NCBI GenBank assembly: GCA_045534635.1
Contig: JAZSKB010000039.1
Coordinates: 74,722 to 106,721, forward strand
Reading direction: 5' to 3'
DNA: 32,000 nt
DNA from: Bacteroidales bacterium
GTDB taxonomy: Bacteria > Bacteroidota > Bacteroidia > Bacteroidales > WCHB1-69
Positions 7,110 to 11,132 of the stretch are shown piece after piece. Numbering within the stretch: position 1 is the first letter of the stretch; the number at the start of each line of letters is the position of its first letter. Under the pieces are notes generated by a model. It saw only the letters and a list, made by a program, of their open reading frames with translations, was not told where the DNA came from and made no database searches. The translations under genes were made by a program, and so were the position numbers.

Positions 7110-7540
7110 ACATTTTTTCAGATATGCTCACAACATCGCAAACATATTTTAATATTTTTTATTATATTTTAAATTGATATTATATTGTGTAATAACTATC
7201 CATCTTGATTTTATTTTTACAAACCTACTTTTAAAACCGAATATAAGAACATTTTGCTTATTATATCGCCATTCCATAGGTTGTTCAGAAATTCTTTGGC
7301 AGACCATACCGCCACTCCGTTAAATATCTTTACTTTTTTCAAAACAAACTACTATTAATTTGCACTTCAGATGTTCCTCTTGAAATGCTTTAAAACTTTT
7401 TAAATGCAATGAAACAATTCTTTCGAAGGATTTTATTTCTGCCTATTTCTAAATGAAAATTTGGACTGATACTTCAAGTTTTACAATAAAATGTGAAGTA
7501 GCGGTTAGGAAATTTACACAAAAATAAATTTAGTAAAGTA

Positions 7541-8827
7541 TTATTGTACTGCTTGGTAAAATTTTTGCAAAAGTATTTTGTTATAATTGATAATCTCATC
7601 TATTTTATCAACCGACAACAAAGCTTCTCTATTATCCAAATTCACTGTTATTATTTGGTCTATACTACCAAGTTTTAAAAATAATATATTCGGAATTGAG
7701 TAACTCGTTCTTATATTGACATTTTGTGATTTAGTGAATTCTGCATGTTTTTGAGATGATAAATATATCATATTTCTTTCATCTTCAATATATTGTGCTT
7801 CTTGTTGGTTATTTGCACGTTTAAAAGGAATAATGTGGTGTAACTCGTAATTAGGAGTATGTTTTATGTTATGGTAGCGAAAATATTTTTCCTTTGGCTT
7901 TTGACTACGTTGAGCTGACTGGACAAATAATCCATATTGACCATCGTTGAGTATTAGATTATCATCTATAACCTTGAAATAGGTAGAATTATTTAGTAAT
8001 TTATAAATTTGTTGGCTTTCATTTTTCCAGTTATGATAATCACGAGCGTAAGATTTGTTTATTCTGGGTTTTTGAGGATTACAATACATTTGTAATAGTT
8101 TATTAAGATTGTTTCTCTGAGTCTCTGTTAATCGGCGATATTCAACAAGATACATCAACTTATCATTAAAATATATATTTTCTCTATCATCGGAAAGAAT
8201 ATACATAAACTCTAAAATATTTATGTAATCAAAACGGTTGTCGGTAGAGAGCAACTCTACCATATCTGTTGCAGCATTCTTTGTTAGTATATCAACGGCA
8301 TCGGTATAGTATTTACGTCGCTCAAATTCTGTCTTAGATAGAATAAAATTCAACCCTAAAACGGACAATCGTACAGAATAAACTGCTGCTCTTTTCTGTA
8401 AAGGTTTATGTTCTCCTATAGAGAACGATTCATTTATATGATGTTCGTCTTTGTCGTATCTATCTAAGAATCCAGCTCGGGCTAAATCGGGAAAAGTATT
8501 TTTCTTTACTGAATTGATAGTTCCTTTACCTATTCGTTCATTAATTTCTCTTACAATTTCATAATAAGTTATCGCTTCTGGTTGTCTTTCCCCATTATCA
8601 TCACCTACGTGTATTCTAAAAATATCATTGCCTGCCTTCTCATGAATTACTTGGAGTAATGTTCTAAAATAATCATAAGTCAGTCTGTTATGTTGAGAAC
8701 ATTGCGTACCTCGATAGTTATCATCTTGCACTCTATCTACTATATAACTCAAAAACTGATTGTTGGTAGATATATGTTCTATTTTTTTTAGAATTTCATA
8801 ATCTTTCATATTGTATTTCTCCTTCAT
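7541..8827 (-). CDS. Putative Type II(S) restriction endonuclease with a C-terminal HNH (beta-beta-alpha-Me) motif
   Basis: 428 aa. It is the last gene of an overlapping three-gene operon behind two DNA methyltransferases. The motif YELHHIIPFKRANNQQEAQYIEDERNMIYLSSQKHAEF (nt about 7745..7840) fits the HH..N..N..H nuclease pattern. The N-terminal 320 aa or so has no motif I recognise. An alternative start is Met7 at 8809. Confidence 0.6.
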   Translation of the reverse strand: MKEKYNMKDYEILKKIEHISTNNQFLSYIVDRVQDDNYRGTQCSQHNRLTYDYFRTLLQVIHEKAGNDIFRIHVGDDNGERQPEAITYYEIVREINERIGKGTINSVKKNTFPDLARAGFLDRYDKDEHHINESFSIGEHKPLQKRAAVYSVRLSVLGLNFILSKTEFERRKYYTDAVDILTKNAATDMVELLSTDNRFDYINILEFMYILSDDRENIYFNDKLMYLVEYRRLTETQRNNLNKLLQMYCNPQKPRINKSYARDYHNWKNESQQIYKLLNNSTYFKVIDDNLILNDGQYGLFVQSAQRSQKPKEKYFRYHNIKHTPNYELHHIIPFKRANNQQEAQYIEDERNMIYLSSQKHAEFTKSQNVNIRTSYSIPNILFLKLGSIDQIITVNLDNREALLSVDKIDEIINYNKILLQKFYQAVQ

Positions 8828-9578
8828 TAATTTGTGAATATAATTCGTTATTCTCGCAACCTATAAATTGACGACCTAATTTTTGAGCTATACGGCTTGT
8901 TGTTCCGCTACCACTAAATAAATCCAACACCAAATCATTTTCATTGCTACTTGCCAGTATCATCCTTTCAATCATTTCATCTGGTTTTATCGTAGGATGT
9001 AGTGGTTTCTGAATTTTTCCGTTCACTTTTATCTTGTGTCTTTGTGATGTTATTTCCCAAACATCATTACATAACTTTCCTTTTTCATTTGGAAACCATC
9101 TTTTCCCATCTTTCAATATGCCTTTTTTTGCAGCGTGAGCTATTCTATCTACCGAATCATATGGAACTCGAATAGAATCAGTATTAAATATATAATCATT
9201 TGATTTTGTATAAAATAAAATAGTTTCCTGTGCATTCACAAATTTCTTGCGAGTAGCACTGAAGCCATCTTTTTTATACCACGTTATCCAATTTCTAAGA
9301 ACAATAGGTTTTTCTCTTAAATGATTAAGTATGATTGCAGAATTATATGCATTATTGAATAGATATATGGACGCAGAGGATTTGCATTTTGATAGAAGTA
9401 TATCAATCCATTTGAATGTAAAATCAAAGTACTTACTTTCAGTTTTAAAAGTATCCCAATCTGCCTTATGCATATTGTATGGAGGGTCAGCAATAACTAA
9501 ATCAATAGAAGATTCTCCTAACATCGAAAGAAAATCAAAAACATCCGCTAAATAAATCCTATTGGTTTTCATAATCAA
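8796..9578 (-). CDS. Beta-class DNA N6-adenine methyltransferase, M.MboIIA-like (M1 subunit of a Type IIS system)
   Basis: 260 aa. Motif IV DPPY (VIADPPYN) precedes motif I (FSGSGTT), which is the beta-class order. Blocks such as KGILKDGKRWFPNEKGKLCNDVWEITSQRHKIKVNGK closely resemble M.MboIIA as I remember it (also 260 aa). The track start at 9578 is TTG. The ATG at 9572 (MKTNRIY) is more likely. Confidence 0.85.
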   Translation of the reverse strand: MIMKTNRIYLADVFDFLSMLGESSIDLVIADPPYNMHKADWDTFKTESKYFDFTFKWIDILLSKCKSSASIYLFNNAYNSAIILNHLREKPIVLRNWITWYKKDGFSATRKKFVNAQETILFYTKSNDYIFNTDSIRVPYDSVDRIAHAAKKGILKDGKRWFPNEKGKLCNDVWEITSQRHKIKVNGKIQKPLHPTIKPDEMIERMILASSNENDLVLDLFSGSGTTSRIAQKLGRQFIGCENNELYSQINEGEIQYERL

Positions 9579-10434
9579 CTAATTTTAGTTTTTTTTCTAT
9601 TAAAGGCTTATAATTTTCATAAATCTCATAACCCACATAGTATCGATTCAAAGATTTTGCCACTTTCAATGTTGTACCGCTACCAGCAAAAGGGTCTAAA
9701 ACAACATCGTCAACACAACTAAAAAGCCGTATACAACGATAAGGAATTGCTTCGGGCATTATAGCAGAGTGTTTTCCATATGCGATATCACTTTTATTTG
9801 GTATTGGTATGTCCCATATTTGCTTTGTGAAGGTCGTCCATTCTTGCTCAGAGAGTTTGCTTTTTTCCTTATTATCAGTAGTTGGAAACTCTGGGATACC
9901 ATCTTTTACATAAATAGTGATAAATTCTGTTGTATTTTGAGCATAAAAATTCCTTGGATAAGGATAACTTCCAAACATCAACCGTTTTGACGAATTAATT
10001 CTATTCCAAATATACAAATCCATCAAATACAAATTAGTGTTATTCAAAACACTCTGTTGAATACTACTTTGAATATCAAATATATGACGATTATAATGCG
10101 TAGTCATTTCTTTTTTAAACATGGGCATTAGAGGTACATTGATACACAATTTACCATTAGGTTTTAATACGCGTTCGCACTCTTTCCACACCGTTAGTAA
10201 AGAATCAATATACTCATCAAAATTTTGACAAGCACCAATGTCAACATCTTTGCTATTAGAATGTTTCTTAAACTGATAACCATCTTTTGAATAGTCTTTG
10301 ATATTAAAGTATGGTGGAGACGTTACAATTAGTTGCACACTTCCATTGGGCAATTCCAACATTTGTTCTGAACTATGCCAAAACACCTTATCCAAAAAAT
10401 TTGGTTTGTGTTTTTCCATTTTTTTACCTTGCAT
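9559..10434 (-). CDS. Beta-class DNA methyltransferase with an SPPY motif (probably N4-cytosine; M2 subunit)
   Basis: 291 aa. Motif IV TSPPYF is near the N-terminus, HSAIMPEAIPYRCI follows, and motif I DPFAGSGTT is near the C-terminus. SPPY is typical of m4C enzymes. An alternative start is MEKHKPNF at 10419. Confidence 0.8.
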   Translation of the reverse strand: MQGKKMEKHKPNFLDKVFWHSSEQMLELPNGSVQLIVTSPPYFNIKDYSKDGYQFKKHSNSKDVDIGACQNFDEYIDSLLTVWKECERVLKPNGKLCINVPLMPMFKKEMTTHYNRHIFDIQSSIQQSVLNNTNLYLMDLYIWNRINSSKRLMFGSYPYPRNFYAQNTTEFITIYVKDGIPEFPTTDNKEKSKLSEQEWTTFTKQIWDIPIPNKSDIAYGKHSAIMPEAIPYRCIRLFSCVDDVVLDPFAGSGTTLKVAKSLNRYYVGYEIYENYKPLIEKKLKLVDYENQ

Positions 10435-10439
10435 TTTAG

Positions 10440-10650
10440 GCGTTTAGCATCTATCGGATTTTCAGGCATCTTTAGGACATAAAAAATGTGGACTCTGACA
10501 TTATCCACATTCTAAAGGCCCTGAGATTGCCTGATTCCTTAGATAAGCCAAAGCCCACGCAAGCGTAGGCATTTACTGACTTATTCTTCAAGGAATCTAT
10601 ATCTAACAATTTCTCAGGTTCTTAGAATGTTCCGAATAAATAGCAAACGC
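10440..10650 (-). ncRNA. Candidate structured RNA (unassigned family; 6S-like rod or 5' leader of the R-M operon)
   Basis: GC-enriched island in AT-rich spacer. Nested helices (plus-strand coordinates): 10440-45/10645-50, 10447-48/10643-44, 10454-58/10631-35, 10520-26/10612-18, 10527-29/10607-09, 10533-40/10590-97, 10541-49/10579-88, and an apical hairpin 10553-59/10564-70. There is also a side hairpin 10470-75/10512-17 with 10485-92/10504-11. Two positions are C.A mismatches on the plus strand but G.U pairs on the minus strand. This favours a minus-strand transcript. Confidence 0.4.
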
Positions 10651-10754
10651 TATGATTAATACTATTTTATTTTAAATTTCTATTTTCTATATATTTTTTA
10701 TTTAATTAAAAATCAATTATATATTACTTTTCACAAAGATGAAGAAGTAATTTA

Positions 10755-10762
10755 CAAAGATA
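10755..10762 (-). promoter_or_regulatory. Bacteroidota-type -7 box (TAtcTTTG on the minus strand) upstream of the structured element and R-M operon
   Basis: The plus strand reads caaagata. It lies about 105 nt upstream of the structured element and about 320 nt upstream of the M2 ATG. No other TAnnTTTG was noticed between it and the operon. Confidence 0.35.
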
Positions 10763-10820
10763 TATCTTTTTTAACACAAATTTATTTTTTTAGAAAAAAT
10801 TTTGTTTTCAGTCACTTTTT

Positions 10821-10850
10821 TTCGGAGTCTGAGCCTGCCGAAGACAACGA
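10821..10850. repeat. Hairpin repeat unit U1 (loop in reverse orientation, G variant)
   Basis: gtct-gagcctgccga-agac (10827..10845). The alternative stem is ttcgg/ccgaa. It is the reverse complement of unit U5 at 15733..15751. Confidence 0.7.
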
Positions 10851-10866
10851 AAAAACTCATGAAATA

Positions 10867-10893
10867 CGGAGGTTTCGACAGGCTCAACCTCCG
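10867..10893. repeat. Hairpin repeat unit U2 (loop forward)
   Basis: cggaggtt-tcgacaggctc-aacctccg: an 8-bp perfect stem with an 11-nt loop. Confidence 0.8.
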
Positions 10894-10910
10894 AAGATAA
10901 AACTCATGAA

Positions 10911-10943
10911 TTTCGGTGTCTGAGCCTGTCGAAGACACCGAAA
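10911..10943. repeat. Hairpin repeat unit U3 (loop reverse)
   Basis: tttcggtgtct-gagcctgtcga-agacaccgaaa: an 11-bp perfect stem. The loop is the exact reverse complement of the U2/U4 loop. An orphan copy of the 3' arm (agacaccgaa) lies at 10951..10960. Confidence 0.8.
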
Positions 10944-11006
10944 GAAAAACAGACACCGAAAAAAAACACAAAAGCAATGACGTTGCAGAAATAGTATTTA
11001 TTTTTT

Positions 11007-11032
11007 CGGAGGTTTCGACAGGCTCAACCTCC
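11007..11032. repeat. Hairpin repeat unit U4 (loop forward)
   Basis: cggaggtttcgacaggctcaacctcc is identical to the first 26 nt of U2. Confidence 0.8.
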
Positions 11033-11085
11033 ATTGATAAAAAAATATAAAAGCAACAATGTTGCAAAAAAATGTTATCTTTGCA
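11020..11085 (+). repeat. About 66-bp intergenic module, copy A (hairpin 3' half, A-tract, gcaacaatgttgc mini-hairpin, TAnnTTTG)
   Basis: aggctcaacctccattgataaaaaaatataaaagcaacaatgttgcaaaaaaatgt-tatctttgca. It is near-identical to 15761..15827. The differences are one substitution, two 1-nt homopolymer length changes and one 1-nt indel before the -7 box. Confidence 0.8.
11076..11083 (+). promoter_or_regulatory. Bacteroidota-type -7 box (TAtcTTTG) upstream of dnaG
   Basis: TATCTTTG lies 50 nt upstream of the dnaG ATG, inside repeat module copy A. Confidence 0.45.
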
Positions 11086-11132
11086 TTTGTAAAAGAACAC
11101 ATACTGTTCCTTTATAAAATATTGTTTTCGTT

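Follow-up and report, generated by a model that had tools for sequence, protein, structure and literature searches.

What is the function of a densely base-paired, GC-enriched patch of about 210 nucleotides (nt) that lies directly upstream of a restriction-modification (R-M) operon without a controller gene? The patch is located in contig JAZSKB010000039.1 of a Bacteroidales bacterium of the WCHB1-69 lineage (assembly GCA_045534635.1), of which a stretch of 32,000 nt, referred to as the window, was analysed. It precedes, on the minus strand, the genes for two DNA methylases (M2 and M1) and a presumed endonuclease (R). A preliminary description had taken the patch for a structured RNA and considered both a 6S-like RNA and a cis-acting leader that times methylase against nuclease expression. 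The patch belongs to an extensive and apparently undescribed group of Bacteroidales leaders which share covarying helices, mutually exclusive folds, a U-tract and upstream promoter boxes, and which are associated with their downstream genes (the cargo) in a modular fashion. The explanation that best accommodates these observations is a portable, cis-acting transcription attenuator or riboswitch-like 5' untranslated region (5' UTR) of the M2-M1-R operon, which is given a probability of about 0.6.

A structured element on the gene strand

The GC content across positions 10450-10650 is 0.37-0.42 compared with 0.13-0.21 in the spacer upstream of the patch. The minus strand (10435-10655) folds with -76.2 kcal/mol against -48.3 ± 4.5 kcal/mol for shuffled sequences (z = -6.15), none of 200 shuffles folds as well, and the plus-strand fold of the patch reaches z = -3.5. 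This contrast in composition and folding strength, together with homologues that carry abundant compensatory changes, bears out the initial impression of a GC-enriched and densely paired element. The direction of the transcript, which had been deduced from just two helix positions, is confirmed family-wide: among homologous leaders, G.U or U.G cells outnumber A.C or C.A cells by 412 to 181 in the first of two folds (Fold I) and by 442 to 35 in the second (Fold II), which indicates that it is the gene-strand RNA, read from the minus strand of the window, on which selection acts. A decayed coding fragment was rejected, as the short open reading frames (ORFs) overlapping the patch have no Pfam match at E <= 1, the helices covary and insertions and deletions do not come in threes.

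At gathering score, Rfam 15 detects RNase P, the Bacteroidales small signal recognition particle RNA and a tRNA elsewhere in the window and no family at the element or in 20 homologous loci. A cmscan of positions 10350-10800 at E <= 10 returned chance matches only (sRNA_0030, L20_leader and Six3os1_7) and neither of the 6S models RF00013 (6S) and RF01685 (6S-Flavo). The proposal that the element is a 6S or 6S-like RNA which mimics an open promoter draws on the Fold I rod of about 125 nt (10507-10630) with its asymmetric internal loop and on the closing stem of the full-length RNA. It finds no support in the model searches, and the element is missing along with its island in seven conspecific contigs, which is not how a housekeeping RNA behaves. 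The many copies linked to variable cargo, the internal terminator-like structure and the fixed fusion to a start codon leave this identity with a negligible probability.

A leader family with interchangeable cargo

Relatives of M2 that are 91%, 86% and 77% identical are encoded in M2-M1-R cassettes of this kind at three chromosomal sites that are unrelated to one another, and a homologous leader lies directly upstream of each. These three leaders have diverged strongly, yet an 18-mer, AGCGTTTGCTATTTATTC, is identical in all of them; it is unchanged in four of the five leader types found via the protein alone. A scan of metagenome contigs for the 18-mer returned at least 120 stretches, and the counts of loci given in the following are drawn from the matches listed. 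Nearly all of these bear the whole leader of ~210-250 nt; two or three are matches by chance, and a few copies are truncated. A divergent subfamily upstream of the Paludibacteraceae-type (P0037-type) M2 (loci L179-L184) has GAGCUUUAUGCUCUUGUUCUC in place of the 18-mer, which implies that the family is larger than the scan reveals.

The leader is followed by a first ORF on the same strand ~205-250 nt after the 18-mer in 93 of the 102 loci with enough sequence, and an M2-like gene is present in only six of the 102. Sorting of the cargo by clustering and Pfam or PADLOC shows that about two thirds of the first genes encode DNA methyltransferases of at least seven families (N6_N4_Mtase, including type III-like enzymes, EcoRI_methylase, N6_Mtase with Methylase_S, Eco57I, MmeI, D12 and C5). 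Other first genes include Tsp45I, DarT, dynamin-like GTPases, Acyl_transf_3 and PAP2, and surface proteins are also found among the cargo. There is no common upstream gene; the upstream neighbours are unrelated and often housekeeping or miscellaneous genes, and in one locus (L110:9478-9537) a SAM-II riboswitch lies ~3 kb upstream of the leader, to which it is unrelated. When leaders with different cargo are compared (the window with L118, L160, L097 and L070), similarity sets in ~25 nt ahead of the 18-mer and breaks off at the start codon. M2-M1-R cassettes at 72-75% identity have no leader, and from this and the varied cargo it follows that the leader is neither specific to this type of R-M system nor obligatory for it. 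The fixed orientation and distance to the first gene and the promoter box upstream thus speak for a cis-acting leader as suggested at the outset. The more specific idea of a device that times methylase against nuclease finds no support, given that acyltransferase, DarT and dynamin-like genes take the first position and that distant homologues of the very same cassette do without the leader.

Seven loci (L068, L107, L113, L134, L151, L169 and L176) carry half-leaders, which consist of the 18-mer, strands b and c and a segment 2 whose complementarity to the 18-mer is improved, followed by a GAGUCUCACGACUC / GAGTCTCACGACTC hairpin and a convergent gene. Segments 3 and 4 and the cargo are absent, and one of these loci resides on an IMG/VR contig. 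The half-leaders may be remnants, independent small RNAs or decoys. In a further locus (L153:288-900) the leader is broken right after P4 by unrelated, GC-richer DNA, which may be a mobile-element insertion; a close relative (L142) continues normally.

A plasmid or phage origin was rejected. Distant-mode blastn of PLSDB and INPHARED with two family members as queries gave no plasmid or phage match, IMG/VR contained only two contigs with the 18-mer (a chance match and the half-leader), and three further viral pattern scans were empty. A synteny-based search via DnaG among GTDB representatives found relatives at 29-53% identity only, none of them with the element. A full-text literature search for the 18-mer returned nothing, and nothing relevant was found in literature on Bacteroidales R-M and defence leaders, FopS or GC-IGR (intergenic region) surveys. 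The belief that the element is undescribed is consistent with Rfam and the literature searched, an absence which is in itself no proof.

Two mutually exclusive folds

Plain MAFFT alignment of 71 non-redundant leaders forms the basis of the following counts; the names of segments and helices are those of Table 1. In Fold I, segment 2 pairs with segment 3 to form helix P4, which is extended by P3 and P2 into a rod. When the 5' domain from the 18-mer to the U-tract is folded alone, the rod is obtained for the window and for about half of eleven other members, and in the remaining ones at least one of P2-P4 is swapped for an alternative pairing. Across the alignment 80% of Fold I cells are paired, compared with 70% in shuffled sequences and 34-47% when slid by 1-3 columns. 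Both sides have changed in 37 of the 47 pairs, with 471 double-change cells against 207 expected, and individual P2 and P3 pairs have changed on both sides in 13-30 of the 71 sequences.

RNAalifold on the raw MAFFT alignment recovered only the conserved pairing of segments 1 and 2 (1:2) and the T/ap helix and missed P2-P4. It was replaced by counts for named structures and by an alignment-free test in which the duplex energy of a strand with its own partner is compared with that obtained with partners from other family members. The combined P2 and P3 duplex has -24.4 kcal/mol with its own and -11.3 kcal/mol with foreign partners, the corresponding values for lower P4 are -16.0 and -8.2 kcal/mol, and control pairings that are not expected to form show own and foreign values to be equal. 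An all-against-all scan for covarying columns was too noisy and usable only as confirmation of P2, P3, ap5:ap3 and ap3:T3. The pairing of 9 bp between 10507-15 and 10622-30, first noted as an alternative that excludes the side hairpin, corresponds to P2, which together with P3 is the most strongly covarying part of the family. The other helices proposed initially are nearly all kept in the homologues, the exception being 10527-29/10607-09, which is not conserved.

Fold II combines the 1:2 helix with a helix of segments 3 and 4 (3:4), immediately followed by the U-tract, and 89.8% of its cells are paired. Segment 4 (in the window GGAUAAUGUC-AGA-GUCCACA) is a copy of segment 2 (GAAUAAGUC-AGUAAAU-GCCUACG) and is complementary to segment 3. 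The ap3:T3 core of 8 bp is 95% paired, and six of the eight pairs have changed on both sides, giving rise to variants such as GCGCGG/CCGCGC, GCGUAGG/UCUACGC and UGCAGAUG/CAUCUGCA. The 1:2 helix comprises 17 pairs that are 97% paired across the 71 sequences, a figure that is weak alone because the 18-mer was fixed by the search pattern; every variation of segment 2 keeps the pairing. More telling is the divergent subfamily (L179-184), which was traced via the protein and not the motif: its altered segment 1 is accompanied by a matching segment 2, with -22.3 kcal/mol for the cognate combination against -12.2 and -13.2 kcal/mol for the crosses. Mean duplex energies are -18.5 kcal/mol for 1:2, -22.5 kcal/mol for 2:3 and -22.6 kcal/mol for 3:4, and shuffled partners reach -7.5 to -9.4 kcal/mol (-8.6 kcal/mol for 3:4). 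If ap3:T3 is enforced in the window RNA, a 1:2 hairpin and a 3:4 hairpin of ~21 bp precede the U6 tract at -49.0 kcal/mol, compared with -54.5 kcal/mol for the rod. The U-tract after T3 has at least 4-8 U in most members and is degenerate in a few. Since the 3:4 helix lies directly before the U-tract, Fold II looks like an intrinsic terminator.

The preliminary description had noted the lack of a terminator at the end of the element; a terminator-like hairpin with its U6 tract in fact sits inside it. The side hairpin recorded there is accordingly of dual nature: the inner part (10485-92/10504-11) is the terminator-like hairpin, and the outer part (10470-75/10512-17) belongs to the alternative pairing of the read-through RNA. 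The notion of a two-state architecture is well founded in that both of the alternative folds covary.

The covariation of segment 1 also bears on the possibility that the leader is a recruitment or pause module for a specialised NusG paralogue or another protein antiterminator, by which the polymerase would be enabled to pass the leader terminator and transcribe AT-rich foreign cargo. The cargo is horizontally acquired, the leader contains a terminator-like structure, and the core of the 18-mer, GCGTTTGC, can form a small hairpin and matches the Escherichia coli ops element, GCGGTAGC, at six of eight positions, which is a weak match with an estimated chance of ~5% within the 18-mer. The divergent subfamily has GCTTTATGC in place of GCGTTTGC together with a compensating change in segment 2, and a motif change that is compensated in this way speaks for pairing within the RNA and not for an invariant sequence recognised as DNA or by a protein. 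Moreover, no NusG-like gene adjoins any of the loci, at which the first gene is always cargo, and this possibility is regarded as quite improbable.

In addition to its helices the family has conserved unpaired stretches, namely GAAAC and RCCU between P2 and P3, AGUGAAC and GU within P4, and ACGGGCA between P3 and P4. These could be part of an aptamer if the leader were a metabolite riboswitch, in which a ligand such as S-adenosylmethionine (SAM), S-adenosylhomocysteine or a nucleotide signal would bind to the rod and stabilise Fold I against the terminator fold. The terminator/antiterminator logic fits, and the methyltransferases that make up about two thirds of the first genes are SAM-dependent. 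Acyl_transf_3, DarT, dynamin-like GTPases, PAP2 and surface proteins, however, have no substrate in common, there is no similarity to the riboswitch classes known to Rfam, and as R-M systems are the commonest defence cargo the link to SAM may be incidental. A metabolite riboswitch in this strict sense is therefore an unlikely variant.

A third fold in the read-through RNA

RNA that extends beyond the U-tract contains three further conserved segments, a post-terminator segment, e' and a', each of which pairs with a segment located upstream. The duplex of c' and b' with the post-terminator segment has -17.4 kcal/mol with its own and -10.6 kcal/mol with foreign partners, the e:e' duplex has -9.5 against -6.2 kcal/mol, and the 18-mer forms a duplex with a' of -16.8 kcal/mol compared with -10.6 kcal/mol for shuffled and -11.2 kcal/mol for coding sequence. 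The a' segment is situated 12-35 nt before the AUG in every leader and ends at a median distance of 17 nt from it. The resulting structure is the minimum-energy fold of the full window leader and includes the closing stem and the side hairpin identified at first. As the post-terminator segment, e' and a' covary with upstream segments of the same molecule, read-through RNAs appear to be under selection. Neither the upstream flank nor the region of the translation start gave a signal when examined as a pairing partner of leader segments.

These pairings weigh on a different interpretation, according to which the terminated RNA of ~170-220 nt, from the promoter to the U-tract, is a small RNA that acts in trans with the 18-mer as its seed, for instance on the a' sites before all leader-bearing cargo genes, and regulates the downstream gene only secondarily. 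It would account for the terminator-like structure inside the leader, for the high conservation of segment 1 with a complementary a' site before each AUG, and for the half-leaders, which keep only the 1:2 hairpin and a terminal hairpin and are followed by convergent genes. The covariation of the three downstream segments within one molecule, the fixed distance and orientation to the ATG and the homology that extends exactly to it point the other way, and the joint change of segments 1 and 2 in the divergent subfamily argues for intramolecular pairing. A trans-acting RNA is consequently considered improbable as the main role.

Layout of the leader

The features of the leader and its surroundings are collected in Table 1. 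Across 84 family members, forward TAnnTTTG boxes of the Bacteroidetes type are concentrated between -50 and -110 relative to the 18-mer and are most frequent at -60 to -80; within this zone ~52 boxes are in forward and one is in reverse orientation. Two are present in the window where a single one had been reported. The position of the boxes implies that the 5' end of the RNA lies well upstream of the boundary drawn previously, and the conserved unit is itself longer than had been thought, reaching from ~10676 down to the start codon. One subfamily contains an additional covarying hairpin, GCGNCGG-GNAA-CCGNCGC, in the 5' extension. The true start of M2 is probably the second in-frame ATG (10419) rather than the annotated one at 10434, because homologues (L044 and leaders with differing cargo) have no ATG at 10434 and align at 10419. 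The distance from P1 to the probable start would then amount to ~21 nt instead of the 6 nt to the annotated ATG.

Table 1. Positions of leader segments, helices and neighbouring features in the window.
Feature	Position	Strand	Remarks
-7 promoter boxes, Bacteroidetes type	TATCTTTG 10762->10755; TAAATTTG 10784->10777	(-)	Likely promoter of leader and operon
AU-rich conserved 5' flank	10652..10676	(-)	Family consensus AACTAACATATTATAAATCAT; window ...AATAGTATTAATCAT
Segment 1, 18-mer AGCGUUUGCUAUUUAUUC (AGCGTTTGCTATTTATTC)	10634..10651 (10651->10634)	(-)	Pairs with segment 2 (Fold II) or a' (P1)
b, P2 5' strand, ACAUUCUAAG	10621..10630	(-)	Partner 10507-10517
c, P3 5' strand, CCUGAGA	10612..10618	(-)	Partner 10520-10526
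Segment 2, P4 5' strand	10563..10597	(-)	Variable stem GAUUCCUU, then GAAUAAGUC-AGUAAAU-GCCUACGC; partner segment 3 (Fold I) or segment 1 (Fold II)
Segment 3, P4 3' strand	10533..10559	(-)	CGUGGGC-UUU-GGCUUAUC-UAAGGAAUC; partner segment 2 (Fold I) or segment 4 (Fold II)
e, AGGCA	10528..10532	(-)	Rod internal loop; partner e' 10464-10468 in read-through RNA
c' and b', UCUCAGG GCC UUUAGAAUGU	10507..10526	(-)	P3 and P2 3' strands; alternative partner post-terminator segment
Segment 4, T region AUGUGGAUAAUGUCAGAGUCCACA with U6 (10486->10481)	10481..10510	(-)	Paralogous copy of segment 2; local hairpin (10504-10510/10486-10492) or long 3:4 helix, U-tract after both
Post-terminator segment GUCCUAAAGA (10469-78) and e' UGCCU (10464-68)	10464..10478	(-)	Post-terminator segment mimics b and c; read-through RNA only
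a', P1 3' strand, CCGAUAGAUGCUAAACGC	10440..10457	(-)	Partner 18-mer
M2 (N6_N4_Mtase) start region	10417..10434	(-)	Annotated ATG 10434; inter-leader homology stops here
Closing stem P1	10440-58/10631-50
Fold I rod	P2 10621-30/10507-17; P3 10612-18/10520-26; P4 10563-97/10533-59		P4 includes apical hairpin
P4 in detail	10533-49/10579-97; apical hairpin 10553-59/10564-70
M2 ORF	9559-10434	(-)	N6_N4 DNA methylase; followed by second methylase, then 428-aa ORF
Third gene, 428 aa	7541-8827	(-)	Presumed endonuclease
109-aa ORF	10771-11100	(-)	Over REP-like units
REP-like units	10820-11042		Four, between leader promoter and dnaG
Strain-variable island	7119..11065		REP-like hairpins, promoter, leader, M2, M1, putative endonuclease, 52-aa ORF

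A strain-variable island and recombination within leaders

The leader and its operon belong to a strain-variable island. Among contigs with an identical DivIC, seven have dnaG and divIC 140 nt apart and carry neither the R-M genes nor the element, and others, like the window, have ~3.9 kb between these two genes. No Pfam match was obtained for the third gene of the operon, which some strains (L001, L004 and L038) possess in split or truncated form. The other side of the leader consists of an AT-rich spacer, hairpins resembling repetitive extragenic palindromic (REP) units and dnaG and priA on the plus strand. The REP-like units (CGGAGGTTTCGACAGGCTCAACCTCCG and TTTCGGTGTCTGAGCCTGTCGAAGACACCG) are palindromic, ~27-36 nt long and alternate in orientation, and their copy number varies between strains, with a single one in L001; the ORF annotated over them has no Pfam match and is probably spurious. 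The flanks of the island, AACATTTTTTT and AAAAAATGTTA, are inverted copies of each other, and in other strains (L001 and L038) the island site is occupied by additional genes for DUF1016 and Fic proteins or by an endonuclease gene that is split.

One metagenome contig (L009) is a chimera, in which the 5' half of the leader is diverged with compensatory changes (GATTCCTT/AAGGAATC to GATTTTCC/GGAAAATC), and the final 97 nt and M2 match other carrier strains exactly and the window at all but one base. Among the contigs with an identical M2 (L002 and L006-L009), four assemblies are interrupted at the same point of the leader, 91-97 nt ahead of M2. Co-occurring strains may thus have recombined with one another inside their leaders.

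These observations raise the question whether the conservation is at the level of DNA, with the leader being the place where a mobile defence cassette is joined or recombines, or a homology anchor for cassette exchange, and with hairpins that are incidental or act in single-stranded DNA. At many unrelated sites the strain-variable cargo begins, on its 5' side, with the leader, near-identical leaders are joined to different cargo with a break at the ATG, and both the crossover in the chimera and the assembly breaks fall into the leader. The strong asymmetry between G.U and A.C, the constant orientation to the cargo and the promoter box upstream are at odds with this idea, there is no recombinase, target-site duplication or cassette array, and an inverted orientation was seen in none of more than 100 loci among the matches listed. 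That leaders recombine is more readily understood as a result of their being conserved, and a DNA-level role is judged very improbable. A cassette array or integron was rejected on the grounds that nhmmer finds one copy per locus and no arrays. An inverton was likewise rejected, as among the matches listed no 18-mer adjoins a divergent gene start and divergent upstream ORFs are all at least 128 nt away.

A model of attenuation

In the proposed attenuation mechanism, the leader would be transcribed from a -7 box located 50-110 nt upstream of the 18-mer. Pairing of segments 2 and 3 would form P4, P3 and P2 would extend the rod and segment 1 would remain free, which may constitute the antiterminator state (Fold I). 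Alternatively, pairing of 1:2 and 3:4 ahead of the U-tract would yield an intrinsic terminator (Fold II). The choice of fold during transcription would decide whether RNA polymerase stops ~50 nt before the start codon or reads through into the cargo, and the balance may be set by an effector whose target is segment 1 or the rod's conserved loops. The pairings of the read-through RNA (18-mer:a', e:e' and c'b' with the post-terminator segment) may additionally tune translation or stability. That termination occurs, that Fold I is the ON state and what kind of effector is involved are all suppositions drawn from the architecture of the leader.

Several points weigh against such an attenuator. The mean energy difference across the family favours Fold I over Fold II by 13.7 kcal/mol; given this thermodynamic advantage and the fact that P4 is a local hairpin, Fold II may need a stabilising factor or kinetic help. 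About half of the members (type 1) also form a local hairpin in segment 4 before the U-tract, which could terminate transcription in Fold I too, so that the sense in which the switch works may vary or be less simple; in the other members T3 lies in the loop of a different small hairpin. The T hairpin of the window fails a simple terminator scan on account of its 11-nt loop, and transcript ends and termination are deduced from sequence. More distant copies of the same R-M cassette function without a leader, and the cargo gives no coherent clue to a ligand, though SAM-dependent methylases dominate. On the technical side the MAFFT alignments are not structure-refined, and the invariance of the 18-mer in the 120 loci is a matter of ascertainment as the search pattern was the fixed 18-mer.

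The regulation of defence systems is largely obscure outside of a few models, and the devices known for R-M systems are family-specific, such as C proteins or autorepression. A ~230-nt RNA module that seems to have been attached repeatedly to methyltransferases, restriction systems, DarT, dynamin-like and acyltransferase genes of gut and rumen Bacteroidales is of interest in this context. It is tempting to speculate, although this extension is doubtful, that a horizontally portable RNA switch places unrelated R-M, defence and surface-modification operons under one common signal, a 'defence regulon' by attenuation in which the half-leaders would serve as decoys or sponges. The signal in such a regulon could be a protein, an RNA or a small molecule that acts on segment 1 or the rod. 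If an attenuator with a common effector were indeed at work, defence islands in a dominant gut phylum would share a regulatory input, the leader would provide a compact, ready-made expression switch for Bacteroides engineering, and it would be a new candidate for an orphan leader or riboswitch, exceptionally rich in covariation and with three alternative folds. Members of the family could also be used to flag accessory and defence cargo in metagenome sequences.

Comparison with known systems

The similarity to 6S RNA comprises the size, a rod-like fold with an internal loop and a closing stem. The leader differs in that it has no match to the 6S models, is not a housekeeping RNA, occurs in multiple cargo-linked copies, contains an internal terminator-like structure and is fused to a start codon.

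Known modes of R-M operon control include C proteins with their C-boxes, autorepression by the methylase and antisense RNAs. The leader is likewise placed ahead of the first gene of an R-M operon, one without a C gene. It is, by contrast, based on RNA structure, is not confined to one R-M family and also precedes non-R-M genes, and close relatives of the cassette are found without it.

Integron cassettes with their attC sites resemble the leader in that a conserved, structured and imperfectly palindromic element is located at the edge of exchangeable accessory cargo. Here the element lies upstream of the cargo together with a promoter, once per locus and without arrays or an integrase, it has no R'/R'' core sites, and its G.U bias is indicative of selection at the RNA level.

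The RfaH/ops (JUMPStart), UpxY/opsX and LoaP systems also place a conserved leader element before horizontally acquired or surface and defence operons, with a terminator or pause in the leader that would have to be overcome and a small GC..GC hairpin motif, to which the core of the 18-mer bears a weak resemblance. In Bacteroides, opsX consists of YGCGNAGCR hairpins in the leaders of capsule operons (PMC11685472). These systems make use of a DNA or RNA site of 12-40 nt, whereas the present leader is a multi-helix RNA of ~210 nt with no NusG paralogue at its loci and a motif that covaries with an RNA partner.

The closest parallel is provided by trp-type attenuators, transcriptional riboswitch platforms and T-box leaders, which like the present family have four alternately complementary segments in a 5' UTR. 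A 3:4 helix is followed by a U-tract, 2:3 excludes 3:4 and 1:2 excludes 2:3, all of which are conserved here. There is no known aptamer or T-box motif and no consistent leader peptide: an ATG-initiated ORF of any kind between the predicted start site and the 18-mer is found in 32 of 80 members and none in the window, for which reason ribosome-mediated attenuation was rejected. Stop codons in all frames just before the 18-mer occur in 40 of 80 members, as expected in AT-rich sequence. Unlike the classical leaders, the antiterminator of this family is extended by P2 and P3 and a third fold is adopted in the read-through RNA. The leader is furthermore independent of its cargo and horizontally portable, rather than being tied to one pathway.

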